64,000 bases of DNA from Cyanidioschyzon merolae (GCA_000091205.1 AP006496.2), one strand, 5' to 3'. Numbered from the stretch's first letter, positions 1 through 28,724 are shown. Numbers and translations: made by a program. Notes: generated from the sequence alone by a model not told the origin.

Positions 1-535
1 CTCCAGGAACGTCCTCGCCTACCGGCACAATGGAGTGTATTCGATTTCGAAAATAAGTGGATGCGCTGGGGTGCACACATCAGAACGTCGAAATGGAGGC
101 GAAAGTTCGAGGACTTCTTGAATTGATGAGTTCCACCACAGGTAACGGACACGTGGAGTGCGTGAACCGAGACTTGCACGCCACGAATTATATGAGGCGA
201 TGTGTTGTGCTGATGACGAGACTTAAAGAGCTGACGCCATCCAGCTTTGTGGAGCAGCCTCTCAGGCAGGAATTGCGCCTGGATGAACTGAAGCCGATAG
301 CAGGTGAGCGATCCAAAAAGGCTGGGTGGTGTCAGCACGAGGGTATCCATTTCATCCACATGACCGTAGAACATTTTGCGTTTGACTTACATACATAGGT
401 TCTATTCTGGAGTGACAGAAAGAGCTTGTGGTTGGCGATAACTCTATCCCAGTTCGTGGCAGACGTTATCTTCGGGCACCCGTGCTTGGTACGCGTCTTG
501 CGACGTTCTAGTTGATCTTGAAAGCGCTGCTTGCA
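1..535 (+). mobile_element. Copy C of the Fanzor/TnpB-like element; 3' portion only, truncated by the window start. It holds the C-terminal RuvC-III region and the conserved 3' tail.
   Basis: ORF 57..398 aligns to the C-termini of copies A and B (VEME...AKVRGLL...VNRDLHATNY versus VNRDFNAAINI; tail FVEQPLRQELRLDEL versus FMGQPLKVELYDTKL). The conserved tail motif ttgatcttgaaagcgctgcttg at 512-533 matches B 28219-28243. Confidence 0.6.
57..398 (+). pseudogene. Degenerate TnpB/Fanzor C-terminal remnant. RuvC-III has decayed to NRDLHATNY, and about 40 aa are deleted relative to copies A and B.
   Basis: Amino-acid alignment to copies A and B across the zinc-finger and RuvC-III region. Confidence 0.55.
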
Positions 536-8588: not shown

Positions 8589-8620
<32 letters not shown>

Positions 8621-11559
8621 ACAACACCATCCCGAGTGTCGGCAAATGTGCGATTGGCGCGTCCACTTGGACGTGCTGGGAGACGCTGTGGCAAGCGCTG
8701 CCTTGGTACTGGACATGGCTGACGCGAGTCTTGGAAAACGCTGCGCTTGGGAGCAGCGGATCGACTGCGCCCAGCACGCGGTACGCGATCACGCCTGCAC
8801 TAAGCATGGTCACCAGCGGTGTCGTTGTACGCGTCGCCCGTTTCATTCAAGTGGTACTGGCGAGTGCGCTGCTCGAGCTGACGCCCTGTGCAGAGAGCGC
8901 AGGCGCCCAGTCGGATGATGCGCGGGATCCACCGCGTGACCCAGACGCATGGATATGGGCACCAGAAATGACGGCAACGACAACGGTCGACTGGTGGGCA
9001 GCACACACCCAGCGCGCACTGCTGTTACACGCGATTGGCCCGTCGAGTGAGCGCCTCGCCGCGTTTCTCGAGCTGGTGCTTCCGCAAAACCAGTCTGGTG
9101 CTGCTGGTAACTCGACTGGTCTGCTCTGGTTTGTTCCAGCGTCACTGCAGGAGGCACACGCGCACCTCGTTGCCGATATGGTGCGTCTCTTGCATCAGGT
9201 CGAAGGCGCTGCGACGGTCCATCGTTTCTTGACGCGGCTGACGCCTCTCCTTGGAGGACGCTCTGAATACCTGGAAAGCTGGACGGGCATTCGGGCCTGT
9301 CAACGGCGTTGGTCGATCGGATTTCTCACTCGACTGGTGTTTTTGGCGAAACTGCAAGAGCCGGTACGCATACCTGGCAACGTGCACGCTCCCAGAGGCG
9401 TATCAGCGTCCGAAATCCACTGCTGCGGCAGCGACGAATGCAGCGAGACTGCTGACGCTTACGGAGCGCTGGGCGAGTCGTCGGCAAACGCTCTGTGTAG
9501 CGACCAGGAGGCAGCACTGCGACTGGCGGCCGCGTTGCAGCATCTTCTGACACAGACGCTGCTGCATGGACTGGTAGCCTCGCCGCTGCTTTGGGCCTCG
9601 GAACAGGCCGGCGCTCGTGAACGACCGGCCAGTCGCCTATGGTCGAGCATGGAGCCGCTTGTGCGCGCCCTTTGCCAGAGCGGCGATGTTGAAGACGAGG
9701 ATGCAGGAGCAGCAGCAGCAGCAGCAATGCCGTCGTGGCCGCTCTTTCTGGCGCGGTATGCAGCACGCTTCTGCAACGGGCTGGTGCGGCATCCAGCGAC
9801 AAGCGTAGCAACATCGACAACAATAGCGGCTGCAGCACCGCTGACGCATGTGCGGCACCTCTGGCTACCGTTGCTGGCGCGTTTGCGGCAGCTGGTGCCT
9901 ACAGCTTCGGCTGCGACGGTTAACAGCGAAACAAGCTGGCGCCGGCACCAGGTGTCGACGCTGCTGGCCAAGCTGGTAGACGAGCTGGAGGCGCTGCTGA
10001 CAAGTGCGCTCGCCTGGAATCATATGTGGTTGCAGGGGCGGCGTGCGGCAGTCACGGGTGATGAAACACCTGCTCTGTCGCGAGCTGCTCTGCAACTGTT
10101 CCAGTACCTCGTGGAGTTTGCTGGTATTCTTTTGGTGTTGTGTGCGCGCCTTTTGCGGGTACCAGGGCGCGCTCCGTTCTGGTCGCGAGTGATTCGTCTT
10201 GGTCGTCGAGCGCTGGAGGAGTACGCAAACATCGTTGCTGGTCAACGGCGGCAACTGCTACAGACAGAAACGTCCTATGCGCCTGGTAGGTCGCGTTCCC
10301 TGGAACACTTGCGTTGTGTCTGGATCGCTACGGTATTGCGAGGTCTCGCCCAGATGGATCTAGTGCCTAACGATAGCTACTATGCGAGTTTTCGGCGACA
10401 CTTGATTGCGGCAAGCCTCGCCCAGGATGCCCTGGATGCGCTTGTACTGGGTCTATGGCCTGGTTTGTCACCGACTTTGTTGCAGCAGCCGGTCGGCGAG
10501 AGCACGGCTGCCAGGTCCGAACGACCAGCGGTTGGTGCTTGTGTTCGCGAGTCGGATGCCGCTGCTGAGGCGACTGCGTTGCTCGCCCTGCTCGATTGGT
10601 ACTGTCGACCGGAGACGCTGTTCCCTGCAGGCACTGCTGCTCTGCAGCGACTGGAACGTTTTCAACAGGAGTGGCTAAGCGATCTGTGCAGCCGGTGCCT
10701 AGCCCAGGCGCAGTCCGAGCGTTGTGTGAACCTGTTGCAGCGCTGGCTCCAAGGTCGGCTTTTGACGTGTACCCGTCAGTCGTGCTTGTCGCATCTCAGC
10801 GGTGCTGTGTATTACGCAACGATGGCGAGAACGCTTGCCGTTGCCTGGTGGTCCGGTTGCATGCGCCACGTTGCTGTGCGTCTGAATCACGCAGGTTCAC
10901 CATCGATGACGACGACGACGACGACGACGCCAGAACAGCAACAACAACAACAACAACACAGGGCGGCGTTGCGCCCTGCAGACCGAGTGGCGACGGAAGT
11001 GATCAGCGACCAGTGCTCGGGCCGACGATTTGCACAGCGTTTTCGCAACAGCGTCGACTTGGCTGCTGCTCTAATGGAGTGGCTCGCGGCAAGCACCCGA
11101 GTGGATGCCCCCGCTCAAGCGACATGCGAGGAGACGTTGGCATTGCTGCTGGAAGCGCTAGCTGCACATGTCAGTGCCGGTTCATGTCCACATTGCGGTG
11201 ACGATCCAAGTCCGGCATCGATATCGTCTGACGAGCGCGTGCAGTTGCTACGTCGTCGACTGGCGGAACAGCGAGCACGCTCTGCCTGCGCAGCGGTACA
11301 CGCGGTATGGACGGATCATCTGGAGCGACTCGCTCGCAAGGAAGCGATGGACGCCAAGTTGTTTACCCATCCTAGTTGTTGTCGAAACTGGCTGGTGATA
11401 CAAGTCAATGACGTAGTGGAGAGAGCGGCTTGCTGGCGTCGGCGACCCGGTGATATCTGGCGGACCGCTGGACCTAGCGTCTTCGATGGAATGAAAGACG
11501 CTACGACGACGACGAGGACGCCACCGCCATGGTTGTGCTGGTCTGTACCTGAACGCTAA
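1045..11559 (+). CDS. Giant low-complexity protein of 3,504 aa, rich in Ala/Ser/Leu/Arg, with a SANT/Myb-like domain. No other recognisable catalytic domain.
   Basis: Uninterrupted 10.5-kb ORF starting at a true ATG. SANT signature WTPAERRLFFAELDRW...W...IFSKAIPSRCGYQCSNFY near 4.17-4.35 kb. In-frame homopolymer runs: polyT (aa), polyQ, polyA and polyS. Confidence 0.6.
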
Positions 11560-11910: not shown

Positions 11911-12490
11911 TCTTCTCGCATGCAATAGATCGTGTTGCTAGATAGTTGCTCCTTATCAAAGAATGCGGGAAACGGATCCAAGTACTGAATAAAGTGTACT
12001 AGTCAAGGTGGACTTGCCAGTAACAGATCCTCTCTAACCCCAACGTGCTGACCTCTTTCTTCTCGCATGCAATAGATCGTGTTGCTAGATAGTTGCTCCT
12101 TATCAAAGAATGCTGGAAACGGATCCAAGTACTGAATAAAGTGTACTAGTCAAGGTGGACTTGCCAGTAACAGATCCTCTCTAACCCCAACGTGCTGACC
12201 TCTTTCTTCTCGCATGCAATAGATCGTGTTGCTAGATAGTTGCTCCTTATCAAAGAATGCTGGAAACGGATCCAAGTACTGAATAAAGTGTACTAGTCAA
12301 GGTGGACTTGCCAGTAACAGATCCTCTCTAACCCCAACGTGCTGACCTCTTTCTTCTCGCATGCAATAGATCGTGTTGCTAGATAGTTGCTCCTTATCAA
12401 AGAATGCTGGAAACGGATCCAAGTACTGAATAAAGTGTACTAGTCAAGGTGGACTTGCCAGTAACAGATCCTCTCTAACCCCAACGTCGA
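11911..12490. repeat. Intergenic satellite with a 146-147-bp unit, 4 tandem copies.
   Basis: The unit tctcgcatgcaatagatcgtgttgctagatagttgctccttatcaaagaatgctggaaacggatccaagtactgaataaagtgtactagtcaaggtggacttgccagtaacagatcctctctaaccccaacgtgctgacctctttctt repeats at 11914, 12061, 12207 and 12353. Confidence 0.9.
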
Positions 12491-12745
12491 CATCGCAATA
12501 GCGCAAAAACGACCCGCCACCGACGTCGGCGCTTCTGTTGGACGCGAACTGAACGTTGACAACGCTTATTGGCCATTTGAGTTTGTTTTCGTGTCGAATA
12601 CCGGAGTGGTAAAGTGTTCAGCCGCTCTTTTGGATCTTAGAAGACTGCTGCTGCTGCTGCTGCTAGTTGAGTTCCACAACGTGCCCAAGGGCGTAGCGTG
12701 GGCGTGTGCAGAAGCACCGAAGAAGGGGTGCTCGTGGCAGAGGGC

Positions 12746-14731
12746 ATGCTCACCGGCTGGACCGTGCACTCGCCGACGGTTCTGAGCTGGGTTCTCGTCG
12801 GGTTTCACGCCAAACATGGACACCAAATTGAATGTGCAGAGTTAGCGGATGAGCTGTCGGTGAACTGGCAAGTGAACCAGCCAGAAGAACGCTCCGGAGC
12901 TTCAGCGCAGAACCTCAGCAATGACTGGCTTCGCGAGGTGGCCGTGCGAGCGCTTCCCGACGGTGCCCATGAACGCGACCACGACATCGTGTACTTCACC
13001 GTTCGACACTGCGTCACTGTCGACACGTTGTACGGTGTAGCTTGCTACCGACAGCGTCAGGTGGACTGCAGTCGCATCGCTAGCGCTGAGGAGGCTGCTG
13101 CAACAGCCCGAGGTCTCGTCCAAAAGTCTGTGGTATTGTTGAGTCGCTGGCCTCTGTATGCGCTTCTAGCGAGTCGACTAGAGCCGGTGGTTGCCAGTTA
13201 CTTTGCGAAACATAACTTTGGGCAGGTAGACTGCTTCCGGACCTTGGTTACGACGCTGAATGAAGAGGTAGCGGCTGCATTGGGCGACCCTGAAGTGCAA
13301 CGACTGCCGGTATCGACACCAGTGCCAGTGCAGCGACTACCAGCGTGCCTGGATCGCTACGTCTTTGGCGACACGTGTCTCCAACAGCTGGTGACGCGGC
13401 TTCGACGGGACTTGTTGCGCCTGATCAAACTCGTTTTATTAGAAAGGCGCGTTTTGGTCGTTGGGTCACCAGTCGAGCTCGTGGCTAAGGCAGTGCTTTC
13501 GCTGGTCAGCGTTTTCCCGGCCGAGTGTCTGGAGCCGCCACCGAACTCGGGGCGGGACGCTGCACTTGACCTAGCGACGTGCTGTACACTAGCACAACTT
13601 CCTTTTGGTCTGTTCGACCTGTATGGAAGCACGGGCGTGATTCGTGTTGAACCGTATGTGCCGCTGGCGTCTCTACAACCAACGTTAGCCGAACGAGACG
13701 CTGATACTGCTGCTGCCACAACAACGCGCTGGATCGTTGGGGTATCTACACCTGTCGGTCGACTATTTGCGGATGCTTGTCGGTCTGCTGGGGTCTTTGA
13801 ACGCTCACCGGTGCGATCCCTATTCGTAACAGGGCGCTCGGCGTCTGCGCAGACACCACACTCGGTACCTGAGTCGATGTCTCCGGAGCGCAGCGACACC
13901 AGGCCAGCCAAGGCTTCGTGGCGGCCGATGAACGCCTTCCCGCAGCCGCCAGATGCACTGGTGCACCTTGAGCGAGGTCGGGTCTATTTCACGCCGGAAC
14001 TCGCGTCACTTTTAGAGCTAACTCGTTCAGAGAAACGTTTCATAGATGAGCTGGTCCATGCGACTGCACGCGGAGCACTGAACGAGTCAGCAGTGCGAGC
14101 ACGCCTTCAATGGTACATCGTGAAGCTTGCCTTGATAGCTGCAGTGGCTGGTGATGATGCCCCCATGCCCGCTGAACAGCAACCTGCTCTGATCGATGAA
14201 CTAGGTCTCCCGTTTTTCCAGCACTGGAATCGTCATACAACGCATTTTCGACGCTGGCACGCTTCATTGCATAGGGCACATGCGACGCTGCGACGCAACG
14301 CACTGGGACATGTGTTGCGGTACGCGTCGAGCATGCCGACTGCCGTCGATGAACAACAGCAACAACAACATTCGATGCGCGCCTCCTTCGAGGAGCTGGA
14401 CGCGGGGCTGGGGCTGCATTCGCTTCGCCAGGCTTGGATGCGCTGGTGGCGCTCCGCTACCTCCACGGACGATACTCGACGGCAGTCGTCGTGGAGAGTG
14501 CATCACGGAACTGCGGTCACTCGAGTCGAGAGCCGTGGAGCCAGCGATGCTTGGCAGCGCTCCTGGGCACTGCCGTCCATCTCCGCGGGTACCATTGCCG
14601 ACGAAGCATGGGCGTCATCTGGCGAAGCGTCAACGATTCCGCAGGCGAAAGCGCACCTGATGACGCCAGCGGTTGCCGCTGCCTTCACGTCGACGGATAT
14701 CACGTTATTGCGGGATCGCTTGTCGCCCTGA
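12746..14731 (+). CDS. AVL9/DENN-domain protein, with uDENN and cDENN regions.
   Basis: VLVGFHAKHGHQIE (uDENN-like) and KLVLLERRVLVVGSPVELVAKAVLSLVSVFP (cDENN-like). First in-frame ATG is at 12746; the ORF track's M at 12698 is GTG. Confidence 0.6.
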   Translation: MLTGWTVHSPTVLSWVLVGFHAKHGHQIECAELADELSVNWQVNQPEERSGASAQNLSNDWLREVAVRALPDGAHERDHDIVYFTVRHCVTVDTLYGVACYRQRQVDCSRIASAEEAAATARGLVQKSVVLLSRWPLYALLASRLEPVVASYFAKHNFGQVDCFRTLVTTLNEEVAAALGDPEVQRLPVSTPVPVQRLPACLDRYVFGDTCLQQLVTRLRRDLLRLIKLVLLERRVLVVGSPVELVAKAVLSLVSVFPAECLEPPPNSGRDAALDLATCCTLAQLPFGLFDLYGSTGVIRVEPYVPLASLQPTLAERDADTAAATTTRWIVGVSTPVGRLFADACRSAGVFERSPVRSLFVTGRSASAQTPHSVPESMSPERSDTRPAKASWRPMNAFPQPPDALVHLERGRVYFTPELASLLELTRSEKRFIDELVHATARGALNESAVRARLQWYIVKLALIAAVAGDDAPMPAEQQPALIDELGLPFFQHWNRHTTHFRRWHASLHRAHATLRRNALGHVLRYASSMPTAVDEQQQQQHSMRASFEELDAGLGLHSLRQAWMRWWRSATSTDDTRRQSSWRVHHGTAVTRVESRGASDAWQRSWALPSISAGTIADEAWASSGEASTIPQAKAHLMTPAVAAAFTSTDITLLRDRLSP

Positions 14732-15953
14732 TAGCAATGACGACACTCATCGCGCGGGAGAGGCGGTGGAGGTGGCGCTCTATGAGCAGCACAGATATTT
14801 CTCGATGTATCATTGTAAACGCGGGACTTGTAGATTCGTGTCTTTGGCACCAACGGACACCTCTTCTGTACAGAGCGGTGCATGCTGGAATGCTTGTACC
14901 AGTTTATCCTTATTGTTTTCGTTTGTTTCTCGTGCAAGGAGTTCAATAAAAGGAATGTGTCTCGTGGACTGGACAGAGATCGCGGAAAGCTTTGATGTTG
15001 TGGTCGCTATTGGCTTGCGATAATGAGCGACCTGACTATCCCAGGGCTCGGTATTGTCGAGCGTTGGGCATGCGCGCTCTCAGGGCCGTATCGAGAAGCG
15101 CGGAATACCTGGCACACTTCATGCCGTGAGCACACGAGCGATCCAGTGGCACACGCGGACGATCTTTGGTAGGTGTACATGGTGCTGCACTGGGGTTGCA
15201 AAGCGTTTCTTCTGCATGAAGGCAAGAGGCGTGCATTCGCTAACTTGTTCAATGCGTTGGAAAATAAAAAATGACTCCCAATTCGCGTCATGTGGTGGTA
15301 GCCTCCAGCGATGGATGTGCGGTTGCGCGCAAGAGCTGCCTGGTCTCTGCTGCTTCGAGGAGCGCGTAGAACGAGTGCAGGAATCGATGCTGCAAGATTC
15401 ACGTCAACTCATTCAGGACGACGTACAGGCATCACGAGCTCTGGTCAAAATTGAAATACGTAGAGAAGAAGAGAGCGCAACAGAGACGGATGCATGAAAT
15501 GGTGTACGGTATGCTGAGCGTACGTCAGCATGGGTTCCAAGTGAATCCAACGGGCTTGCACAGGTGTGTGTGTGTGTATGTGTTTGTGTGATTCCATCAG
15601 CTACGAAGCACCCATGTACGTTCTATATGGGGAATCGCATGCCCCGACGAACACCGGAAATGTATTGTGCTTCGAGAGCGCCCGTCGGTTTTGTGTGGAG
15701 CGAACTGGCGAGTGAATCGTTTAGTACTCAGTTTGGGCCCTGCGCTGAAACGCTGCAGAGTTTCGATGCAAAGTATCAGTTGCCAGAATCGAGGCGTTGA
15801 AATCTCGCTTGGATCGAGGCACTCTTCTGGTGCGGTCAACAGCCAAGCAAGGCTGGGGCACCATACAGATACACCGGCAACGGAGTTCCTGGAATTTTCG
15901 TGAACAAAAATGGTGTCCCGTGATCCCATGCTCCAGAGTCCAGATCGTTGGGG

Positions 15954-16436: not shown

Positions 16437-16851
16437 CAGCTGCACGCGAACAACTGCAGGCGCAGGTCGAGCCGGTTGTGCGTTTCCGTGAGGACTCCCA
16501 TTGGGCGTTGCTGCGTGCTGCTCAGGAGGTTGCCCAAAACGACGCTCCTCATCAACACCGTCGTCACTGCTGCCGCTCGCCGCTGTACTAGCGTAACACG
16601 AACAGCGCCGACGCTTCGGAGCAACCACGCCCGCGGGCGCTCCGCTGACGCTCCAACGGTGCCCAGGTTGTAGGCGTTGCAAGGTACACACGACGAAAAC
16701 CATACCGGTGTTTACGCCAGAGTCGAGCGTCACGATGTGCAACTTTCAGCAACACTTATGCGCAGTAGATAGTACGTACGGGCGCCGCAGCCAAACGCCT
16801 TTCGAAAGTCGAACGACGTCGGGCGTGTACAGTAGCGGCGACCGGCGGCCT

Positions 16852-19189
16852 AGACGTAACGCTTCCAGCTGGTGTGCAGACGCCTCCCAGCGTTTCTCGG
16901 CGGGCCACGTACTATTTCTTCTAATTTCGTCTCATATACTTCTACTTTTCGAGATTGTCCAACAAAATTCCCTCTTGTCTACTCTGGAGGTCTGTTCTCC
17001 AGCACTGCCCATCTCCGGATATTGATAGCGGCGTTAAAGTCACGATTCACAAAATCCATACGTCTCCTGCAATCTCTGGTTGTACTTTCTGATGCAAGTA
17101 GTCCACGAACTTTCGCTCTCCTTTCAATTTGCTCTTCCGTCAGCGGTTCGTGCTTTGCTATTTCCGAACGGCTCGTTGGCACTTTTCCATCTCCACTGTC
17201 TGAAGTGTACAACCCATTTCATGGTGTGTATAGGACGTTCGGAACTCATGTACAGGTATCGTGAAGAAACGCCTTGCGCACTCTTTGTATGTTCTTGCCG
17301 TTGGAACTGGCGCAGTCCCTTTTTTCGACGCCGAGCACCCTGCTCTGTACGCTACTACGAGCCTCTGACTTTCATCCTCCTTCAGGGCGCTCAACTGATT
17401 GAAAAAATTCGCGAACGCCCGCTGCTTCCCACAATACAAGTTCATTCACAAACGAGCCCACCGGGGCTTGGTATACTCCTCCCACAGCGCCTCCCAATGA
17501 GCAGCGCGAACTTTCATGAATTTCCGAAAAGCTTCAAAGTCCGCTCCTCGGCTAGTCACCTCGCTCAAAGCTTCCATGTGATCCTTCACTCCTGAATTCC
17601 ATTTCTCGATTTTCTTCCTTGCATTCATTATACCGGATTCTCGATAGTATCTTGGTCTCGAGAACCTCAAAAGACGCATGTCTCTCTAACGAAAGTTACC
17701 ACCAGTACTATCTTCCGCACGCTTCGGTGCTGCGATGGTGATGATATTCGTATTCCCGGGGTCCGCGCCAACGACAAAGTCGTTATCTTGTACTTTCTGT
17801 GCCGCAGGATCCGCCTTCTTGTTTTCTTCATGCTTCGTCGCGCCAACGACAAAGTCGTTATCTTCCACTTTCTGGGTCGCAGGATCCTCCTCTTTCTTTT
17901 CTTCATGCTCCGCCGCGTCAACGACAATGTGGTTATCCTCCACCTCCTGCGTCGCAGGATCCTCCTCTTTCTTTTCTTCATGCTCCGCCGCGTCAACGAC
18001 AAAGTCGTTATCCTCCGTCTCCTGCGTAGCAGGGTGCGCCTCCTTCTCATCTTCATGCCTCGCCGCATCAACGACATGGTCGTTATCTTCCACCTCCTGC
18101 ATGAGAGGATCCTCCTCTTTGTTTTCTTCATCCTTCGTCATGGGCGCAGTCGAGGGCGGAATTGGACGATCTTTCTTCAACCGCCGATAGTGTATACACA
18201 TGGCTACTCCATCGGTTTCGATCAACCCAGTAAATACCTTTTGTTTGGTCTCTTTGAGACGTTTGAAATTGAAGATATTCTTCCAGTACGTCTCCCGGTT
18301 ATCACCGGAGAACTCCTTGTTGCTAACATTGAACTCCGGACAGATCTCCTTCATGATGCCATGAAGGATCCTGGAGTCGATACTCACAAAATGTGACTTG
18401 ATGTTGCACAACGGAACCACGTTGAACCGCTTACCCATTAGGAAAGCCTTCTGTCTCTCCCACTCTTCATTTTTCCTCACTCAGCTTCATCTCCGCCTTG
18501 CGTTCGAGTTCTCGATTCAGGAATACGAAATAGAGCAGGATGAGTTGATAGCATCTTTTTTCATCTTTTTTGAACTCTGATATTTTTTCTGTTGGATTCG
18601 CCAGCCCCATGACTGCACGGTGCTCTTGTATAACCGCACGGATTACAGAAGCCTCATTCGTGCTCTCGTTTGGCGCCTTCTTGTCGACAAATTCGACCTC
18701 ATCTTCATACTTTCGATCGTTCGTGATGCCATTGATAATCGCCCATATTCCTTTGCGAGACAGGCCCGGGTAGAGTGGAAACACGGTGCGTATTATGAAA
18801 CGTTCGAGGTTCATTGTCAAATGGTTCTTCAGGTTCGTGATGTGCTTCATCGCCCCGTAGCCGTAAATACCCCGGTCACCCTTGTATCGAGTACCGTTGA
18901 AGCTGTAAAAGGGATGTTTTTCGTGGGGGCCATGCACTAGCACATTTTCCCTCCGCGTTTTCTCTCCACCAAGCATCAGGTGTCGAATAAAGGTGATGTC
19001 GAAAAACTCGTCTGGAATCTCGACCGTTTCGATGTGCGTCACGTCTTTGTACATCTCCCTCGCCAAATGCATCAGCCCTGACGACGCCTTGACAATACTC
19101 TTGGAGTACGAGTCGACGCGTTTTTCGATAGCGTCTCGCAACTTTTCCCTGTACGGATCCTTGATATGGCCAAGAAGAAAGGCTCTCAT
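16852..19189 (-). pseudogene. Fanzor1-like (TnpB-like) RuvC nuclease gene, disrupted. Ruv[18 protein letters not shown], RuvC-II region IPVHEFRTSYTHHE, zinc finger, RuvC-III VNRDFNAAINI.
   Basis: Main ATG at 19189. One frameshift near KAEMKLSEEK/EWERQ. Nonsense TAG where B has CAG (GGNFR*RDMRLL). Frameshifts at PRWARL/MNLYCG and after MEKCQR. Nonsense TAG where B has TTG (RPPE*TRGNF). The coding tail ...RGNFVGQSRKVEVYETKLEEIVRGPPRNAGRRLHTSWKRYV* is conserved with B at the amino-acid level. Confidence 0.75.
17745..18125 (-). repeat. In-frame 75-bp coding tandem repeat, about 5 copies, encoding roughly [25 protein letters not shown], inside the Fanzor-like ORF just upstream of RuvC-I.
   Basis: Period 75 nt (for example 17877 and 17952). 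Copy B has about 2 units (27.16-27.26 kb). Confidence 0.85.
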
Positions 19190-19399
19190 CACCTTCTCGT
19201 CGTACAGTCGTCTTTCTTGCCGCCTTCGACGTAGGACCTCTCCCCTTCGGTTCTTTTTCTTCTCCTTTTCTTCTGGGCTCGGCACTGTTTTTCGTTTTTT
19301 CTGGCAGCCAGCGATACTGGGCCTCCAGGATCGTCGACTTGCTTTTTCATAGCTTTCCTTTTTCAGTTTTTTTAAATGAACCCGCTGTGAATGCTTCGG

Positions 19400-19406
19400 T
19401 TATATA
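19400..19406 (-). promoter_or_regulatory. Conserved TATATAA box about 50 bp upstream of the uORF ATG (19350) of element copy A.
   Basis: cgcagTATATAAccgaagc in A aligns to cgcggTATATAAcagaagc in B (25857-25863) within the conserved 5' end. Confidence 0.45.
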
Positions 19407-20799
19407 CTGCGAAAAAACACTTGGCCAGACTTGTTTGAGGGTTGAAACACCAATGAACTGAAAACTATATTTTTGTTCGACTCCGACGCAAATACAACTT
19501 TTACAGCTGAACAACACGCTCCTGGTCAGCATCGCGGTTCCTTTCAACGGCGGCATGTGCATCGCGTCAGTTGACTGCCTGATCTCCGAGATGCGTTCAT
19601 TAAGCGCAATGCGTCCATCGCACGAGACGCCACTCCAGTCGATGAAGGACACGTGTCCGACACCCCGCATTGGCACATGCGTGTTCGCATCGCATTGCAG
19701 CCAAACTAAAGTATCGTAGATAGGAAACTCACGTAGAACGATCTCTTGCTATAGACGCTGTCGCTGGTGCCGAAGCTACTGCCCATCGCAGTACCGCCTG
19801 GACATACATGGAAATGTTGGGACCTAACGCGATACCTCGTGATGCTTCTATCAAAAGCGTAGCGTTCTCTGCGGCTTACCGTTGTGTGGATGACGTATGC
19901 ATCACTCTTCTCACTAGGAATTTCGTTAGTTTTATTCATCGTAACCAAACTAGGTACGGTGGGATTCCTGAACACGGACATACGTTTAATGCCGATGCTT
20001 GTCACGCATGCTACACTGACGCTGGAATGAGGAACTGACCTGAATTGTGCTTCTATCCTGCGTCATAGGCTGGTACTGATGACCGTTCAAGTCATTTCCA
20101 TGCTGCTGTCGTTGTCTAACTTATGGTGCCTGCTTCGTCCTCCGGATCCGGTGATCTTGGCAGAGGCATAGCACACTCGACCGGCCCCCTGCTATCGGTT
20201 TCAGCTTCTCCTTGTTCACCTCTGGCCTGGGAGGTTCCCCCAGAAAGTTGGACCGCGTCAGCTCCGCCGGTCGCGCGTTCATCACCATTCATCATCTGAT
20301 ATTGATGGCGTTTTGTCTGAAACGCTCGTGATAGAGCTGAGGTCAAGAAGCGATCAATCTTGACCGACGCTATCAAACGAGCGGTACCAGAAGCTGAGGG
20401 CTGCAGCCGGCACCAGGTGCTCTGATGCCTACATGCTGGCCGTGAATAGTGCGTGACGAAGTCGCACAGCATGCCACGGTTTCCTAGTACGTAAACCAAG
20501 CACGTATTCGAAACGTTCGGGTTCAGTGTGATGACGAGTCGCCGCTACGGCATTCTGGGAAAATCATCCGAGTGCGCTATGGTTGTTCGAACATCGAGCA
20601 TCATCACGTGTATGGGTGCGTTTCACTGCACGAGTTGCAACGATCATCGAATCCACCATCATCCAAAAGTGACGAAAATTTACAAGCGTACCGGGCTCGC
20701 ACCTCCAGGTCAGGACGTGCCCACCAGCACGCAAACAAATTTCGTGCCCTGCTGTGCTTTCACCAAAAACGAAAGGAAACATGCGTTTCCTCGACCAGG

Positions 20800-21079
20800 G
20801 ATAGAGGGTTCCGAATTCCTTCAGATACTGCCGATGTTTCGTCCGAACCCAGACCAGCATCTGCAGTGTGCCCACGAGCATACACAGGATGCCTGCGATT
20901 GTTCGCATCATCGAGATCAATCCTACCCACGCCAGTACCTCAAATATGCAGTTCGGATACGACACGAACTCGAAAAGCAAGCCGAATGGGATCCGCCACC
21001 AGCAGCGGCCGCGAAACCCGATTGCAAACCGCTCCCGCAAGCCATTTGGGCAAACGAGTGGTGCAGCGCGCATATTCAT
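20800..21079 (-). CDS. Exon encoding the C-terminal domain of a 3-oxo-5-alpha-steroid 4-dehydrogenase-family protein (SRD5A/TECR/polyprenol reductase-like). Gene structure is incomplete.
   Basis: GLLFEFVSYPNCIFEVLAWVGLISMM...LVWVRTKHRQYLKEFGTLYPWSRKRMFPFVF matches PF02544. The ORF has no stop after the conserved end, so either an intron or a C-terminal extension follows. Confidence 0.45.
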
Positions 21080-21664
21080 ATAATGCAGCAGCAGTAGCAG
21101 CAGCAGAGTGCATCTAGGGGTGTGCGTGGATGGTGAGCATGCGTTGCGCAGCTACGATGTGCTTTCGTTGAATGCGGCAGATAGCTGCATGGATCGTTGC
21201 GTGCGGTGCGCTGCTGTGATGCGCTTTACGGGCGGCGTTCGGGAAACCTGCTTTTGCCTCACGGGAGCGCGCGTCAGTGTCGAGTAGCCCGTCGGCAGGG
21301 CCGGACAGCATCTCTTGCAAACGAGTCCGCTGGCAGCGAATCGAGCAGGCGATACGACGTTGCGCTCGTCATCGGATATCGGCACTGCAAGGCACACGGA
21401 TACCTGTAGAGCTCGTAGTTGATCGGTCTGCAACACGGTTCGGCATGCGCCTCGCCAGGGAACTGCAGAGCAAGTGTGTGCGTGCACAAACGATGCGCGC
21501 TCTGGGCTGGAAAACGACGCTGCGTCGCAGCTTGTGTCCGCAAAATATACGTACTCCTCTGGTTCGGTATCGGAAACCGCAGTAGCTACTCGCGCAGGTG
21601 CTGCTGACACAGGTATCGATTGCGCGGCGCCTGAGCGCAATATCCAACCGCCGCGACTCTGCGC

Positions 21665-21994
21665 TCACATGTGCGCTTCGATGCCACGGAGGATTTCTTC
21701 GGCCTTGGCGCCGTTAATCGTGAGCACGCGGTCACCATTCTTGTAGAAATGAAAGCTCGGTACGCTGCGAATACCAGCGGCCTTCATCATCATAGATGTT
21801 TCCTTGGACTTATCCCCCACCACTTTTAAGAACACCACGTCGGTGTACTCCTCACTCCATGATTCCATCTTCGGTTCCATGAGTTTGCACGGCCCGCACC
21901 AGGTGGTCCCGTAATCGACAACAATGAGCTTGTTCCCCGCTTCCGACAGGATGCGTTCCATTTCCTCTTGTGAATCAACTTCCCGAACCGCCAT
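21665..21994 (-). CDS. trx: Thioredoxin (h-type fold). The ORF extends upstream to 22240, with a His7 tract.
   Basis: WCGPC active site. Full thioredoxin fold alignment: LIVVDYGTTWCGPCKLMEPKMESWSEEY...VVFLKVVGDKS. ATG at 21994. Confidence 0.8.
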   Translation of the reverse strand: MAVREVDSQEEMERILSEAGNKLIVVDYGTTWCGPCKLMEPKMESWSEEYTDVVFLKVVGDKSKETSMMMKAAGIRSVPSFHFYKNGDRVLTINGAKAEEILRGIEAHM

Positions 21995-22428
21995 CCTAGG
22001 CCGAAGCGAACCCAGAGGCCTGCGGCGGCTGTAGCTGTAGCTGCAGCGGTGGTGGTGGTGGTGGTGGTGTCCAGACCCAACGCCCTGCTGCACCGTTCCG
22101 AGGGCGTGTCGGCGCCATAGCGGCGCTTTACTGCCACTAGCAAGCAAGGCCCGTGTACACACCGCGCCACTACCGAGGTCAGCGCGTTTCCCGACCGATC
22201 CCGCAACAGGTACTGATACAAAGCAACTGATTCCTACCATTTCCGTCTCTCAGGGTCCTGCTTGTGTGGAGTACACGTTGCCCAGCAAAGCACCAGCGTA
22301 GAGCAGTCGCCACAACGATCTCCGCGCCTGTGCGCTGCGGCTGGCGCACTGCCGCATCTCATCGAGGCGAGATCGCGGCGCCTGGAAGTGGACATCAGCG
22401 GCGGCAGCGGCGGCAGCGGCAGCAGGTG

Positions 22429-22630
22429 TCACGAGCACGGGGTGCGGACATATACCAACGAACATACGGTGTGTCGATGGGTGCTGCTTTGGGTGTCACG
22501 CGCACGGGGTTCCGAAGTATATCAGTGAACATACGATGTGTCGATGGGCGCTGCTTTGGGTGTCACGCGCACGGGGTGCGGACGTATATCAGTGAACATA
22601 CGGTGTGTCGATGGGCGCTGCATTGGATGA
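22429..22630. repeat. Tandem repeat with a 67-bp unit, 3 copies.
   Basis: gtcacg(c)gcacggggtgcggacgtatatcagtgaacatacggtgtgtcgatgggcgctgctttgggt at 22429, 22496 and 22563. Confidence 0.85.
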
Positions 22631-24406
22631 GCGTCGATTGCGATCGTTTGCCAGATGAAGCATTTCTAGAAGCGGATGTACACCTCCTAACGCATGATAT
22701 TTCCTGTATGGATGCGTCCGTTGCTTGACAAGGCCAGGGTGATCTCGACTTCGGATCGGATGCTGTTGATGATACGCCAATGATCGAGAGATCATTCGGG
22801 TATCGAAAGCATGATCGGTCTCGTGTACCAGATAGATTGCAATCGCGAATACTGGAACCGAGGAGCACCCCAGTACGCGAGCGCTCGCAACACGTGTCCC
22901 CACTGAGCGAGCGCCTCACTGGGCGACATCGGCCTCGTGGTGAAGCGTCGCAGCGTGCCCCTATTCATAAGCAACGACGATGCTGCAGTCCTGGCGCTGC
23001 GATTGTGCCGTTTGTGGTCTGCTAGTATTATTTTGACACGGTTCGACACCTGATACCGAGGGCTCGCGCTGCCGCGGGATGCCCAGCTCCGGTTTTCGAT
23101 CCCCGCCTTCGAGCGCTGCCTTTCGGATTCAACGACCGGCTCAGCAGCGAGACTAGTGACGAATCGTCTGAAAGCGCTGCTAGGACGCTGCGCACTGCCT
23201 CTGTGTACACGCGTAGGCGGTGGGTATCTGGATGCGACGCGCTCGGCTTTGCTCAGCGGAGCGCTTTTGTGCAACCATTGCGCATGTTGCTGCTCGGTTG
23301 CGACTTGGTCTGGATGGCAGTCTATTCGAGTCTGAAAGTCACGCATTAGGTCATGAGGGTCATTTTCACTTTAGTGACATGCAAAACGGAAAGCAGGTAC
23401 TCAATGTTCCAATGGGGTTTGCTTGCGTGCATCCATAGACGGCCCGCATCAAGCTTCCGCTCGATGCTGTTTCTGGCGCTGAGCATCGCGGGCACGCGGC
23501 ACTCGGCACTGTGAGGTGAGCAGCGACCTGCGCGAGCGCAACACATTACGGCCGCAGGAAGAGGTGTCGATCAAAGGGGTCGAACGGATTCCACTGCCCA
23601 TGGGTCACTCGGTGAAGCCGTTCGCATGTACCCGTTCCCAGTCATCATCAGCGTGTTGGGTATCGATCAGCGTTTGCGTTTCGCGCTTGAAGCAACTGCC
23701 TCTCTTCATATACCACGGATGCATCCGTATGCTCGGCTTGTATGGACCACGAACTGGATCCCATGTCAAGCAGGCAAACGGACGCGCTCTTTCGTGACCA
23801 ATACACAGCATCTGCTGAGCGTCGCTCGATCGCTTTCTTCCTTCCAGTCCGCGAATGCTCCGATGCGTGCTCGTTCGACGCGAAGTCGCACCAGAGAAAC
23901 TGCATCGAACAGAGTCCGTCATGCATCGTCGCAGGAAACACAGCATTATCATAAACACGCACGCTGCCTCGGGTCTTTTGAGCCTTGCGCACATCAAAAG
24001 TCAACAGGCCCGCTGCCGGGTGCATCGCGACGATCGTCAGCGATCAGTGCGTACCGTCCGAGATCGTGATTCCCTAACCAGCATGAGCGCGTCGTTCCTT
24101 GTACATCATCCACACTATAGTGCTGCGTCATCCACGCTCAGTGCTCACACGACGCGCCCAGCTCTAACAGATGCGCCGCCTGACTATTGCGCAGACAACC
24201 GGAGGCACACATCCGCGAAACCAGACATCGCCGGTATTTCCCCAGGCAAGTCATTTGCTGAACGCGCGGTCATTCAAGGGAGCCTATCGGGAAATGCCTA
24301 GAAATGACGAGCCCCTATGGCAGGTGCATGAGCCTTCACTGCCACCGTTCTATGCCTTCTGTCCTGAGACGCGCCGGCGCTGTCGCGGCCGTCGGTAAGC
24401 CAGCGC

Positions 24407-25065
24407 TCAAGCACCAGCGCTGTAACAATGCTGGCTGGGATCCGAGCCCAAGATGACGTAGGTGTAAATTTCGTCGTTCAGCATTTGTGCGGTATACGAT
24501 GCGATAAACTTGTACCGACCAGAGGTCAGCGCTGAACGGAATACCCGTTCCATCTCTGGAACCACCAGCATTGCAGCTTCAAAGGCCTCCCGTCCAAAGA
24601 GGCCCTCGCCGCCGTATGCATACGGACTCGACCAGTTGAAATAGTGCGCTGGCAACTTTGTGGCATGCGCAGCGCCCATATAGTCGGTGCTGGTCCAGCC
24701 GCCCACGGCGAGCGCTGACTCGACAGCTGCCCGTCCGAGCGCACTGCAGTTGCCAGCGGCCACGTCTGCTATCGGACACTCCACCATGTTATCCACGACG
24801 TTCGCAGCACCAATGATCAGTCCCTTGTTCAGACACAGGTCATGATCAAGGTCTGCAAGCGCATTCATGATGGTAAAGTCGTATTGCGACACGTTCAGGG
24901 CCATAGCGTCGGTCTCGTTGATGTAGATGCCACCGAGCGCCCTGCTCGGCACCCGCAGGATACTCTCTTCGAGCGTCTCGAGGTTCAGCGGCGTAACCAC
25001 TGTCGCAGCACAACGAGACAAACATCCCGCAAGCCCCCACAGGCTAAGAAAAGCGAAAAGAAGCC
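24407..25065 (-). CDS. Secreted Cys-containing protein with a signal peptide and N-glycosylation sites; unknown family. Paralog of the gene at 30544..31191.
   Basis: Signal peptide MRAWLLFAFLSLWGLAGC. Shared C-terminal motif LGSDPSQHCY and overall about 40% identity with the paralog. ATG at 25065. Confidence 0.55.
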
Positions 25066-25856
25066 ACGCTCGCATATTAATCAGAACAGAGCCACGTTCC
25101 AGGAAAAACAGCAATGTCTCTATCGTGGGTGGTGCTGCATTGGGGATCAAGGCGCACCGCGTGTGCGTGCGTCTGTGCGCGGAGCGCCCTGCGGCGAACA
25201 GGCCCCGGTGCAGGCCCTGCGAGACGCCGCGGTGGCACCACCGGCGCACGCCTCGGGAGCCGGCACACTCGATCCGTGGCGATCGAACAGGCCCAGCGGC
25301 AGCGCCAAAATGGGCGTTCGGGACGTCGGCGGCGCCACCAGCATCAGCGATCGGCGCCAGATTAGGAAGCGATGCGTGCCGGCGCGCGCTGTTTCCGACG
25401 TTCCAGGCGTCGACGCGTCGATGTCGGTGGTGGTGGCTGCGGGCGCCTGCATCTCCACTTAGGTGAGGGCGGTACTGAGATGGGCAGGAGCGTCGGCACC
25501 AGCGACATAGCATAGAGCAGGAGTGCATTCTACGTGAATTTCCAATCTAGGACACCTGATTTCAGCTGCAGTGCGATGCGAACACGCATGTGCCAATGCG
25601 GCTTCGGACACGTGTGCTTCATCGATCGGAGCAGCGTCTCGTGCAGTGCACGCATCGCGCTCGGTGAGCGCACCCCGGAGATCAGGCAGTCCATTGACGC
25701 GACGCGTATGTCGCCAATGAGGGGAAACGTGATCTTGATCAGTAACGTGTAGCCGCAATGTAAAATTGTAATTTCATTGAGTTCGTATCCAGGTATAGTT
25801 TTTATTTCAATTGTGCTTCACCCTTAAAACAAGCGTAGTCAAGTGTTTTCTCGCGG

Positions 25857-25863
25857 TATATAA
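25857..25863 (+). promoter_or_regulatory. Conserved TATATAA box 56 bp upstream of the uORF ATG (25919) of element copy B.
   Basis: Aligned with the copy A TATA box within the conserved 5' end. Confidence 0.45.
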
Positions 25864-26079
25864 CAGAAGCGTTCAAAGAACGTTCTTTTTCAAAAAAAAA
25901 TCTAAAAAAAGGAAAGTTATGAAAAAGCAAGTCGACGATCCTGGAGGCCCAGTGTCGCTGGCTGCCAGAAAAAACGAAAAACAGTGCCGTGCCCAGAAGA
26001 AAAGGAGAAGAAAAAGAACCGAAGGGGAGAGGTCCTACGTCGAAGGCGGCAAGAAAGACGACTGTACGACGAGAAGGTG

Positions 26080-28177
26080 ATGAGAGCCTTTCTTCTTGGC
26101 CATATCAGGGATCCGTACAGGGAAAAGTTGCGAGACGCTATCGAAAAACGCGTCGACTCGTACCCCAAGAGTATTGTCAAGGCGTCGTCAGGGCTCATGC
26201 ATTTGGCGAGGGAGATGTATCGCGACGTGACGCACATCGAAACGGTCGAGCTTCCGGACGAGTTTTTCGACATCACCTTTATTCGACACCTGATGCTTGG
26301 CACAGGGGAAGCGCGGAGGGAAAATGTGCTAGTGCATGGCCCCCACGAAAAACATCCCTTTTACAGCTTCCAGGGTAATCGATACAGCGATGACGGAAAT
26401 ATTTACACATGCGGGGTAATGAAGTACATCACGAACCCGAAGAACCATTTTACAGTGAACCTCGAACGTTTCATGATACGCGCCGTGTTTCCACTCTACC
26501 CGGGCCTGTCTCGCAAAGAAATACGGGCGATTATCAATGGCATCACGAAGGATCGTAAGCATAAAGATGAGGTCGAATTCGTCGACAAGAAGCCGTCACG
26601 CAGGAGCACGAATGAGGATTCTGTAATCCGTGCGGTTGTACAAGAGCACCGTGCGGTACTGGGGCTGGCGAGTCCAACGGAAAAGATATCAGATTTAAAA
26701 AAAGATAAGGAAAGATACTATCGCCTCGTCCCGCGATATTTTGTGTTTCTGGACCGAGAGCTCGAACGCAAGGCAGAGGTGAAGCTGAATGGGAAAAATG
26801 ACGAGTGGGAGAGACGGAGGGCTTTCCTAATGGGAAGCGCTTCAACCTCGTTCCAATGTGCAACATCAAGTCACATTTTGTGAGTATCGACTCCAGGATC
26901 CTTCATGGCATCATCAGGGAGATCTGTCCGGAGTTCGATATAAGGGAGACAGAGTTCACCGGTGAAAACCGGGAGACATACTGGAAGAATATCTTCAATT
27001 TCAAACGTCTCAAAGTGACCAAACAAAAGGTATTTACTGGGTTGATCGAAACCGATGGAGTAGCCATGTGTATACACTATCAGCGTTTGAAGAAAGATCG
27101 TCCTGGTCCGCCCTCGGCGAACCACGAAGATGAGACGGAGGCGGTTCCTGCCACGTAGAAAGTGCAGGAAAACGACTTTGTCGTTGGTGCGGCGAAGCAT
27201 AAAGATGAGGAGGAGGAGGATCCTGCGACGCATGAGGTGGAGGATAACGACTTTGTGGTAGGCGTGAACCCCGGGAACACGAATATCATAACCATCGCTG
27301 TATCCAAGCGTGCAGAAGATGGTACTGACGGCAACTTGCGTCAGAAGACATGCGACTTTTGAGGTGCTCGAGAGCAAAATGCTATCGAGAATCCGGTATC
27401 ATGAATGCAAGGAAGAAAATTGAGACATGGAATGCAGTAATGAAGGATCACCCGGAAGCTTTGAGCGAGGTGACGAGCCGCGGCGGGGACTTTAACGCTT
27501 TTCTGAAAATCATGAAACTTCGCGTTGCTCGTTGGGATGCGCTGTGGGAGGAGTATACAAAGCCTCGGTGGGCTCGTCAACGTATGAAACTATACTGTGG
27601 TAAGCGGCGCGCGTTCGCGAATTTTTTCAATCAGTTGAGCGCCCTCAAAGAGGATGAAAGTCAGAGGCTCGTAGTAGCATACGGAGCAGGGCGCTGGAAG
27701 ATCCAAAAAAGGACTACGCCAGCTCCATCGACAAGAACGTATAAGGAGTGTGCACGGCGTTTTGCTACAATACCTGTTGATGAGTTCCGAACATCGTATA
27801 CACACCATGAACGGTGATGTACGCTCCAGAGAGTCGAGATGAAAAAGCGCCAGAGGAGCCCTGAGGATATAAAAAAGTACGGAGCGCAAACGGAAGAGCA
27901 AATGGAAAGGAAAGCGAAAGTTCGTGGACTGATCGCATTGGCGAGTACAATCAATGGCAAGAAACGTATCGAATTCGTGAACCGAGACTTTAACGCCGCC
28001 ATCAATAGAAGGAGATGTGCGGCGATGGAGACGAGACCTGCGGAGTTGACAAGAGAGAATTTTATGGGGCAACCTCTCAAGGTGGAATTATACGATACGA
28101 AGCTGAAGTCAGTAGTAGGTGGCCGGTCGAGAAAGACGGGGAGGCGTCTGCATTTCAGTTGGAGACGTCTCGTCTAG
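26080..28177 (+). pseudogene. Fanzor1-like (TnpB-like) RuvC nuclease gene, disrupted. RuvC-I has mutated to GVNPG (D to N). RuvC-II IPVDEFRTS, RuvC-III VNRDFNAAINRRRC.
   Basis: Main ATG at 26080, overlapping the stop of a 53-codon basic uORF (25919..26080, TGATG). A 1-bp indel at AFLMG/KRFNLV. Nonsense TAG at VPAT*KVQ where A has CAG. A 1-bp deletion at RQKT/MRLL. TGA at HHER*C where A has ATGGGT. Elsewhere continuous where A is broken. Confidence 0.75.
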
Positions 28178-28724
28178 GACGAGTTCGCCGCCACTGCTGT
28201 ACACCGCTGGCGGCAGCGTTGTTCTTTTGGAAAGCGTTTGTTGTTCGTGGTGCTCTTGCCGTTTGTCTCATGCGCGTTTGAAGGTGCGAATTTAGCAAGT
28301 CGAGTTGGGCTCGTCACGGGTGTGTGTGCACCGCAGGCGCGGGCAACGTGGTACACGACGCTCGTACCTCCACGGATGCTTCCAAGTGAACCACTGGTGC
28401 CGGACTGGTGTTCCTCTCAGAGATAGTGGTTTAACCGTTTCCGTTTCCCCGCGGTTGCTGAGCGCAGAAGGGACAGCTTTGCTGTACGAATGGACGAATA
28501 TCGCTTCGAGGTGCACTGTCCAGCATACCGGGCATAGAGGCTGATAGATCGGGCGCTTTGGTATCGGTGCGTTGCGAAACCGCGCAAGGTTCAAGAAGCA
28601 TGCAGTCCGCTTTACTTTCTGGATTTTTGGCACCAGTGCCCATATACGGTTGCTCGAACCGAATACAGTGCTTTCGCTAGGCGCTAGCGGCAACGGAGCT
28701 CAATGATCATGCGCTGCTCCAGTG

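Follow-up and report, generated by a model that had tools for sequence, protein, structure and literature searches.

A 64-kb stretch of Cyanidioschyzon merolae DNA (64,000 nucleotides; hereafter the window) holds two long copies of one repeat, A and B, inverted relative to each other, separated by about 5.7 kb and each interrupted by frameshifts and stop codons. Did both once encode a working protein, and was each disabled on its own? A preliminary description of the locus had held that both copies descend from a functional progenitor and were independently disabled, that every lesion in one copy is wild type in the other, and that some of the lesions hint at deamination-type decay.

The pair and its family

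Copy A occupies 16795..19798 on the minus strand, as delimited by the A/B alignment, the coverage by family loci and end alignments. Its core, common to most family copies, spans ~16795-19600 (from coverage by non-orthologous family loci); its 5' extension, 19600-19798, is present in only ~12-22 of the fetched loci, the highest count falling near 19600. Copy B lies at 25468..28240 on the plus strand, with a core of ~25690-28240 and a 5' extension of 25468-25690. Over ~2.7 kb of alignment the two are 84.8% identical, the substitutions between them comprising 230 transitions and 180 transversions. Upstream of the 5' boundary the family loci fall into several unrelated sequence classes, and no exact termini, target-site duplications or target motif could be defined from the aligned element ends. 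The annotated hypothetical gene CMN280C starts inside the 5' end of copy B.

Each copy contains one pseudogene. That of A (16850..19350, minus strand) opens with an ATG (19350-19348), closes with the natural stop TAG (16852-16850) and carries three frameshifts and three in-frame stops; its RuvC-I motif GADPG (GAC at 17763-17761) and its RuvC-III motif NRDFNAAINI are intact. That of B (25919..28177, plus strand) begins at the ATG at 25919, ends with the natural stop (28175-28177) and has three frameshifts, two in-frame stops and an Asp-to-Asn change in RuvC-I. Just before RuvC-I, A has an in-frame tandem repeat of a 75-nt unit encoding 25 acidic residues (17763..18137, minus strand, about five units). 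B has about two units (27115..27264, plus strand), and the copy number differs among family copies. The 3' untranslated end of A (16795..16852, minus strand) keeps the terminal stem-loop of the family, with the stem directly after the stop codon degraded; in that of B (28175..28240, plus strand) the terminal hairpin is disrupted.

Five ORFs in the window match C. merolae 10D proteins exactly (BAM81356, 81357, 81361, 81370 and 81371, from a contig of 852,727 bp). The window thus belongs to chromosome 14 of this strain, and we assign A and B to the Fanzor1-encoding repeat CMe-1A, a name based on species, size, absence of terminal inverted repeats (TIRs), copy number and protein family rather than on an alignment to the Repbase consensus itself. 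CMe-1A has been described as a repeat of ~3 kb without TIRs that is present in the C. merolae genome in ~150 copies, ~80% identical to their consensus and with some ORFs intact; the Fanzor1 ORF, its describers remarked, has long been maintained in a family without a transposase of its own (Bao and Jurka 2013, Mobile DNA 4:12; PMC3627910). The present copies agree with that account in species, size, lack of TIRs and the abundance of diverged copies, and in having a single TnpB-like/Fanzor1 ORF that is degraded in the majority and kept long in a few. We find no substantive difference; the coding regions of A and B match a consensus of metagenome relatives at ~88-92% identity, rather than ~80%. 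A metagenome scan found at least 289 related loci, and the window itself holds three relics of the family besides the two full copies. As degraded CMe-1A copies A and B are ordinary and already known. Their loci are best annotated as CMe-1A/Fanzor1 pseudogenes, which has little significance beyond bookkeeping.

Lesions in each copy

In A, the frameshift described near 18.47 kb was confirmed against B and the consensus at ~18474-18477, within 18464..18480 on the minus strand (AGTGAGGAAAAATGAAG versus consensus AGTGAGGAAACAAATGAAG). Set against B it amounts to +1 nt, and against the family consensus to -2 nt; B has itself lost 3 nt there, in frame. The nonsense TAG between GGNFR and RD also held up, at 17688-17686 (minus strand): B and 34 of the 39 other copies have CAG, and the stop is present in the orthologous locus L040. 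A reported frameshift at PRWARL did not, in that there is no indel at this site but an in-frame TGA at 17448-17446 (minus strand), where the family has CGA (a CpG transition) and B has CGT; this TGA, too, is present in L040. Alignment to B and the family bore out the frameshift near MEKCQ as a 1-nt deletion at ~17175-17177, within 17170..17180 (minus strand). The TAG reported at RPPE/T is indeed present in A at 16981-16979 (minus strand) where B has TTG, but it is not exclusive to A. The context reads RPPE, then Leu, Ser, Trp or stop, then TR; the codon is hypervariable across the family (TCG, TGG, TTG, TAG, CTG and ATG), and TAG is found at it in six further copies that are not orthologous to A. 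Hence A may have inherited this stop, or the change may have arisen more than once, so that it need not be private to A.

All five lesions ascribed to B were found, each in B only and on the plus strand: a 1-nt deletion at AFLMG (26831-26834, GGGG to GGG), present also in the ortholog L083; a nonsense TAG inside the acidic repeat (27156-27158), in place of the CAG of A and the family; a 1-nt deletion at RQK/DMRLL (27344-27345, CAGAAAGAC to CAGAAGAC); a nonsense TGA at 27815-27817, where A has GGT and the family GGG, GGT or GGA; and the RuvC-I Asp-to-Asn change (27267-27269), AAC for the GAC of 35 of the 39 other copies, with AAC also in L083. A variant genetic code was considered for the in-frame stops and rejected, since neighbouring genes translate normally and frameshifts are also present.

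Perhaps the genes are intact, and the lesions are errors of the reference sequence or its assembly? Three of the indels do sit in short homopolymer runs (the A-run treated below, GGGG and AAA). However, the A orthologs L040, L041 and L042, from independent metagenome assemblies, align to A at 98.4-98.9% identity with no gaps over 2.4-3.2 kb, and the B ortholog L083 aligns to B at 98.6%, its sole element indel lying in the 5' untranslated A-run at 25901. All frameshifts, all stop codons and the Asp-to-Asn change recur in these orthologous loci. We judge intact genes hidden by error to be extremely improbable, and the independent orthologs lead us to exclude sequencing error as the source of the lesions. 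The A-side element of the L083 contig was set aside as an A ortholog, being chimeric or recombinant beyond about window position 17990.

One lesion is common to both copies, which contradicts the claim that every lesion in one is wild type in the other. Where the family consensus has a run of seven adenines, A (19300-19295, minus strand) and B (25969-25974, plus strand) each have six. The run being one base short, the only upstream ATG (19350 in A, 25919 in B) misses the frame of the main ORF and reads a dead-end frame of 53 codons. The same state occurs in 11 of 39 other copies, so A and B may owe it to subfamily ancestry and not to conversion. Run length is dimorphic in the family, the 119-nt and 120-nt classes being of similar frequency, and the otherwise uninterrupted ORF of locus L001 belongs to the out-of-frame class. 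The short run might not be disabling if translation starts elsewhere.

Functional ancestry, decay and exchange

The claim of an intact consensus held only in part. That of A and B is open only from about codon 22 (the PSPEEKE region) onward, with no in-frame ATG before the basic N-terminal stretch, whereas the consensus that we built from 39 other non-redundant copies is open from ATG to stop. Measured against this 39-copy consensus, A has a dN/dS of 0.46 and B one of 0.33. Substitutions common to at least five other copies have a nonsynonymous/synonymous ratio (N/S) of ~1.0 in A and 0.8 in B (0.91 pooled), and private substitutions have one of 5.5 in A and 3.3 in B (3.43 pooled), where the neutral expectation is 2.8-3.6; polarisation by consensus is imperfect here, each copy being ~10% off it. 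The open consensus, the low dN/dS and the low shared N/S set against neutral private N/S bear out the proposed descent and support the reading that both copies come from functional progenitors and were disabled separately. Selection on shared variants and neutrality of private ones agree with the long maintenance of the Fanzor1 ORF (Bao and Jurka; PMC3627910). The lesions, five or six per copy within ~2.3 kb, do not overlap, as independent decay predicts, which is not statistically remarkable.

Could A or B nevertheless be expressed by recoding, through programmed frameshifting at the A-run or readthrough of stops? The two about equal A-run classes, and the out-of-frame state of the L001 ORF, would suit such a mechanism. 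Yet each copy has five or six lesions of differing kinds, B lacks the RuvC-I Asp, and private substitutions stand at neutral N/S in both copies; we put the chance of continued expression at practically nil.

The mutation spectrum bears on a directed C-to-T inactivation, whether RIP-like or by deamination of methylated CpG. Of the five stops in A and B, three are C-to-T changes on the sense strand (two CAG to TAG, one CGA to TGA), against a spectrum-weighted expectation of 18% (binomial p ~0.04, n = 5), and A has a mild excess of C:G to T:A over T:A to C:G changes (66 vs 50). CAG to TAG and CGA to TGA are, in general, among the few single-transition routes to a stop codon. In the spectrum as a whole, however, pooled per-site transition rates against the consensus are near equal (C to T 0.073, G to A 0.074, T to C 0.072, A to G 0.064) and ts/tv between A and B is only 1.28. 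CpG transitions are slightly enriched in A (7.1% vs 5.3% at non-CpG sites) and not in B (6.2% at both). The copies, the consensus and the window all have a CpG observed/expected ratio of 1.2, and only 14 of 103 single-step nonsense changes across the family are C to T, where the same 18% was expected. The strong C:G to T:A excess and CpG depletion of a RIP-like or methylation signature are absent. We conclude that the symmetric transitions, the CpG ratio and the family-wide nonsense count speak against the hint of deamination-type decay, and directed inactivation appears very improbable.

Identity between A and B is mosaic. A tract in the 5' part of the ORF, 18931..19380 in A (minus strand) and 25889-26338 in B, is 95.1% identical, rank 1 of 820 copy pairs, and identity reaches 98.4% within 19300-19050. 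In the 18900-19199 bin, 18 of ~25 differences from the consensus are common to A and B. Over the 3' 900 nt identity is 81%, less than the family median (83%), and the pair ranks 656th of 820. This pattern, 95-98% in the 5' ORF against 81% in the 3' part at the top of 820 pairs, indicates local gene conversion between A and B over the first 300-450 nt of the ORF. In L083, A-like patches lie at 26163-26306 and 26550-26640; these could be a metagenome assembly chimera, the contig being chimeric at its A-side element.

A local inverted duplication of one resident copy would instead make A and B sisters. The 5.7-kb spacing fits that reading, and the two share the rarer class of 5' extension, the A-run state and the near-identical 5' ORF tract. 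But homology stops at the element ends, the 5' extensions themselves are only 76-80% identical, the low rank of the 3' part is out of place for sisters, and no lesion is in common apart from the A-run, which 11 other copies also have. The mosaic fits gene conversion better than whole-copy duplication, which we hold to be quite improbable. With homology ending at the element ends and 3' identity below the family median, A and B appear to be independent insertions that have not been wholly independent since. Hence the idea of independent disablement survives as to the lesions that each copy acquired on its own, but not as to the common A-run and the converted 5' ORF tract.

Taken jointly, these comparisons make it very probable that A and B are two separate old CMe-1A insertions whose source lineages would have been working elements under purifying selection. 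Once inserted, each copy would have drifted neutrally and gained its own frameshifts and nonsense codons, B additionally losing the predicted catalytic Asp of RuvC-I, so that neither should be able to make protein. Ectopic A-B gene conversion would have homogenised the start of the ORF, and the short A-run in both copies would uncouple the start codon from it. The data show the family identity, the lesions with their polarity and their recurrence at orthologous loci, the pattern of selection, the mutation spectrum and the mosaic of identity; from them we infer the order of these events, and also that the ancestral element worked as a nuclease with an omega RNA.

Kinship with characterised Fanzor1 systems

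Fanzor1, a TnpB-like RuvC nuclease of eukaryotes, uses an omega RNA as its guide. A 10-sequence profile of the family had no match among PDB sequences. After the family was deepened with HMMER representatives from a set of 1.8 billion proteins, a 72-sequence profile that includes the CMe-1A-type ORF P0001 matched PpFz (E 1.1e-23), SpuFz (E 9.2e-19) and GtFz (E 4.4e-13), which argues that the family is homologous to characterised Fanzor1 proteins. An AlphaFold (AF2) model of the member P0041, a 33%-identical relative and not A or B, has a pLDDT of 94 and a pTM of 0.90 (the P0001 model, from a shallow alignment, has a pLDDT of 41). Its top Foldseek matches are SpuFz, PpFz and GtFz (E 5.5e-20 to 1.4e-15, TM 0.59-0.70), SpuFz itself at E 5.5e-20 and TM 0.67-0.70, with Cas12 and TnpB far behind. 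We conclude that the family is predicted to have the Fanzor1 fold (REC/WED plus split RuvC) and that it is a multicopy mobile element carrying a Fanzor1 ORF.

The predicted catalytic triad was assigned by motif alignment only: across 72-96 relatives, neither D364 (GxDPG) nor E525 (DEFRT) varies, and conservation of D568 (NRD) is 90% or higher. A keeps all three equivalents; B has Asn at the first. PF07282 (Cas12f1-like_TNB), the zinc-finger domain that in Fanzor1 lies between RuvC-II and RuvC-III, matches 29 of the 72 family members (best E 9.6e-11). The repaired B protein scores only E = 0.39 against it, the CMe-1A segment has no CxxC pairs, and a Pfam search with the raw ORF pieces of A and B gave nothing significant.

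With the solved Fanzor1 structures (SpuFz1 8GKH and 9CEU-9CEZ; PpFz1 9CF0-3; GtFz1 9CER-T), CMe-1A shares profile homology and a fold match, the GxDPG RuvC-I, DE(F/Y)(R/K)TS and NRD..A..N RuvC-III motifs, and a basic N-terminal stretch resembling a nuclear localisation signal. Identity to them is ~14%. CMe-1A copies differ from them in having the variable acidic 25-residue tandem repeat before RuvC-I and in showing, between their last two motifs, no obvious zinc finger of the CxxC...CxxC type; A and B, in addition, are pseudogenes. The TnpB proteins of bacterial IS200/IS605 and IS607 elements are distant fold relatives (TnpB 8H1J, E 7.8e-5). Like those elements, CMe-1A lacks TIRs and has a structured 3' end with two hairpins near the ORF stop; unlike them, it has no TnpA transposase, a eukaryotic host, a much larger protein and an omega RNA that is only putative.

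Most copies have the two hairpins downstream of the stop codon, the terminal stem occurring in two sequence versions. RNAalifold found no pairs or consensus structure in the alignment of the 3' 100 nt, probably due to the two length variants of the terminal hairpin. Single-sequence folds of the 3' ends were modest (mean z -1.3), and Rfam gave no relevant match.

Might the family, as distinct from A and B, live on in Cyanidioschyzon and in its relatives from hot springs, as a Fanzor1 RNA-guided nuclease adapted to ~45 C and acid, with the A-run as a slippage-type expression switch? Purifying selection on shared variants, the near-complete ORF P0001 (752 codons) and the intact family consensus point that way, but we regard this as unlikely. 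A living family would be an element with IS200/IS605-like hairpins and no known transposase. The many environmental copies could serve to rebuild an ancestral Fanzor1 of a thermoacidophilic eukaryote.

Lesions, orthologs and the start codon

The inverted CMe-1A copies A (minus strand) and B (plus strand) had been described as carrying different disabling lesions. Three-frame translation and base-level comparison confirmed nearly every item on that list. In A, they located a frameshift at 18474-18477 (-), a nonsense TAG at 17688-17686 (-) and a 1-nt deletion near 17175 (-); a further TAG at 16981-16979 (-) belongs to a hypervariable codon, which reads TAG in six unrelated family copies too. The reported frameshift at PRWARL is actually an in-frame TGA at 17448-17446 (-), with no indel and with flanking ORFs in the same frame. 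B carries 1-nt deletions at 26831-26834 (+) and 27344-27345 (+), nonsense TAG at 27156-27158 (+) and TGA at 27815-27817 (+), and AAC for GAC at 27267-27269 (+), which changes D to N in the GxDPG motif. The lesion observation is real and mostly accurate.

Might sequencing errors explain the indels? Metagenome contigs contain orthologous A and B loci together with flanking sequence. Three orthologs of A (L040, L041 and L042) are 98.4-98.9% identical to it with zero gaps, and the ortholog of B (L083) is 98.6% identical, its sole indel within the element lying in the 5' untranslated A-run. All stops and the D to N change were found in these orthologs. Because these loci carry the same lesions, sequencing errors are ruled out as their source. 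Several JGI, ENA and Logan samples (3300005573, 3300005861 and 3300050362 included) contain contigs that match 10D chromosome 14 at 97-99% identity for tens of kilobases; hence close relatives of the Italian isolate 10D are well represented in public metagenomes.

The claim that A and B together give an intact consensus was overstated. The family consensus that had been called for, built from 39 other non-redundant copies, is open from ATG (MKKQVDDPGGPVS...) through PSPEEKE... to the natural stop. Its A-run holds 7 A, compared with 6 in both A (19295-19300) and B (25969-25974), a difference that the preliminary description missed. With the run one base short, the A/B ATG opens onto a frame that closes after 53 codons, and in both copies the main ORF lacks an in-frame ATG upstream of its basic N-terminal stretch. 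Two distant intact relatives, P0040 and P0041, have a Met immediately before the equivalent stretch, which therefore belongs to the protein. The out-of-frame length class was seen in 11 of the 39 other copies, so the short run in A and B may be characteristic of a subfamily, at a homopolymer prone to indels. Family-wide, the run is dimorphic, the 119-nt (out-of-frame) class being about as frequent as the 120-nt (in-frame) class; one metagenome locus, L001, carries the out-of-frame class in an otherwise uninterrupted 752-codon ORF.

Decay and probable exchange between copies

A functional progenitor followed by separate decay had been proposed. We binned substitutions by the number of other copies sharing each. 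Variants common to at least five copies had N/S ratios of ~1.0 (A), 0.8 (B) and 0.91 (pooled), versus 5.5, 3.3 and 3.43 for private variants, where neutrality predicts 2.8-3.6; of 155 pooled stops, 115 were private. These data bear out the proposal: source lineages would have diverged under purifying selection, and each inserted copy would then have decayed neutrally. Against the family consensus, dN/dS was 0.46 for A and 0.33 for B (0.44 for A against B), and all other copies gave 0.24-0.51. Among fetched copies, the longest open frame has a median of 325 codons and only two loci exceed 700, which makes A and B typical.

Separate decay held, but full independence did not. Overall, the A-B alignment starts at A 19798 / B 25468, ends near A 16846 / B 28181 and is 84.8% identical across its 2,706 aligned columns; the differences comprise 230 transitions, 180 transversions and a few indels. 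In the 5' ORF tract, identity rises to 95.1% (19380-18931) and 98.4% (19300-19050), ranking first among 820 copy pairs; the median pair reaches 79% and the runner-up 90.6% (93.6% in 19300-19050). In the 18900-19199 bin, 18 of about 25 differences from consensus are common to both copies. The 3' 900 nt are 81.0% identical, which ranks 656 of 820 and lies under the family median. Perhaps one copy arose by local duplication of the other? This is unlikely, since the similarity ends where the element ends and, within the family, the two 3' halves are unrelated to each other. The mosaic is best read as ectopic gene conversion between A and B, which lie close together in inverted orientation.

Mosaic pairs occur elsewhere: L007/L014 and L013/L032, for example, reach 97-99% identity over the 3' 900 nt and not elsewhere. 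Recombination or conversion among CMe-1A copies seems common. In the environmental B ortholog, A-like patches cluster at 26163-26306 and 26550-26640, and these could come from an assembly chimera. Its 94.9-kb contig (Ga0080006_1136386) matches the window from 32232 to 17990, a point inside the A-side element's acidic repeat, and then switches to a different element 3' half, after which the flanking genes differ (glutaredoxin, PRPP synthase, RRN3). The switch (locus positions 12413-15235) reflects an assembly chimera or else a true rearrangement between copies.

Deamination-type decay had also been suggested. Polarized against the family consensus, C:G>T:A versus T:A>C:G changes numbered 66 versus 50 in A and 70 versus 64 in B, and transition rates at CpG versus non-CpG sites were 7.1% versus 5.3% in A and 6.2% versus 6.2% in B. 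CpG observed/expected was 1.2 in the consensus, A, B and the window alike. Across 41 pooled copies, the four transition classes had even rates (0.064-0.074), and C>T accounted for 14 of 103 single-step nonsense changes, where codon content and spectrum would predict 18%. C>T changes produced three of the five stops in A and B (p ~0.04 by our own estimate on five events), but the balanced overall spectrum leaves this excess unsupported. We conclude that the spectra of A, B and the pooled copies hold no RIP-like or methylation signature and argue against deamination.

Membership in the CMe-1A family

The repaired protein retrieved dozens of ORF fragments, 60-77% identical and all tagged Pfam DUF8286. 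A pattern scan of metagenome contigs gave at least 289 family loci, and an exhaustive HMMER search 3,927 cluster representatives at E <=0.001. A 72-sequence family profile, one CMe-1A-type ORF included, matched Fanzor1 proteins of solved structure from Parasitella (E 1.1e-23), Spizellomyces (E 9.2e-19) and Guillardia (E 4.4e-13). Cas12f1-like_TNB was matched by 29 of the 72 members. The AlphaFold model of P0041 (pLDDT 94) matched SpuFz at E 5.5e-20 and TM 0.67-0.70; Cas12 and TnpB trailed by a wide margin. Bao and Jurka (2013; PMC3627910) had already described CMe-1A in the C. merolae genome, with ~150 copies of ~3 kb at ~80% identity to consensus, TIRs absent and TSDs undetermined. A and B are ordinary pseudogene copies of this published transposon family.

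An acidic 25-residue unit, encoded by a 75-nt in-frame tandem repeat, directly precedes RuvC-I (17763-18137 (-) in A; 27115-27264 (+) in B). It varies from about 2 to 6 units across copies and is missing from P0040 and P0041.

Most copies have two hairpins past the stop codon, GGCGGG..CUCGCC and then a 9-12 bp terminal stem, in a comparison of the 3' ends of A (16795-16852 (-)), B (28175-28240 (+)) and family loci L001-L082. The stem exists in two sequence versions, each folding perfectly: CGTCGTTCGAC-TTT-CGAACGGCG and AACGTTTTTC-TTTT-GAAAGGCGTT. The arrangement resembles the subterminal hairpins of IS200/IS605 elements or the scaffold of an omega RNA. RNAalifold gave no consensus structure for the family 3' ends, and single-sequence folds had a mean z of only -1.3.

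Element limits and surroundings

Coverage from non-orthologous family members pushed the 3' ends to about 16795 (A) and 28240 (B) and placed the typical copy start near A 19600 / B 25690. The 5' extension reaching 19798 (A) / 25468 (B) is present in only a minority of copies. The ATG of CMN280C (BAM81357, hypothetical; 24407-25528 (-)) lies inside B's extension, antisense, with an overlap of 25468-25528; its first ~20 codons are thus transposon derived, and the real start may lie further downstream.

Three more heavily degraded Fanzor1-family relics, with 24-47% amino acid identity by tblastn, lie at 66-368 (+), 15037-15735 (+) and 20178-20309 (-). The last is a C-terminal fragment that shares A's orientation and lies immediately upstream of it; sequence as far as about 20176 recurs in a few other family loci.

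Five window ORFs outside A and B exactly match C. merolae 10D proteins (BAM81356, 81357, 81361, 81370 and 81371), which places the window on chromosome 14 of that red alga. One uninterrupted ORF of 3,504 codons spans 1045-11559 (+); its exact sequence is absent from the protein collection, where its neighbors' sequences are present. A 67-nt unit occurs three times in tandem, at 86-89% identity, at 22425-22629 (+), where the thioredoxin gene lies on one side and the next ORFs on the other.
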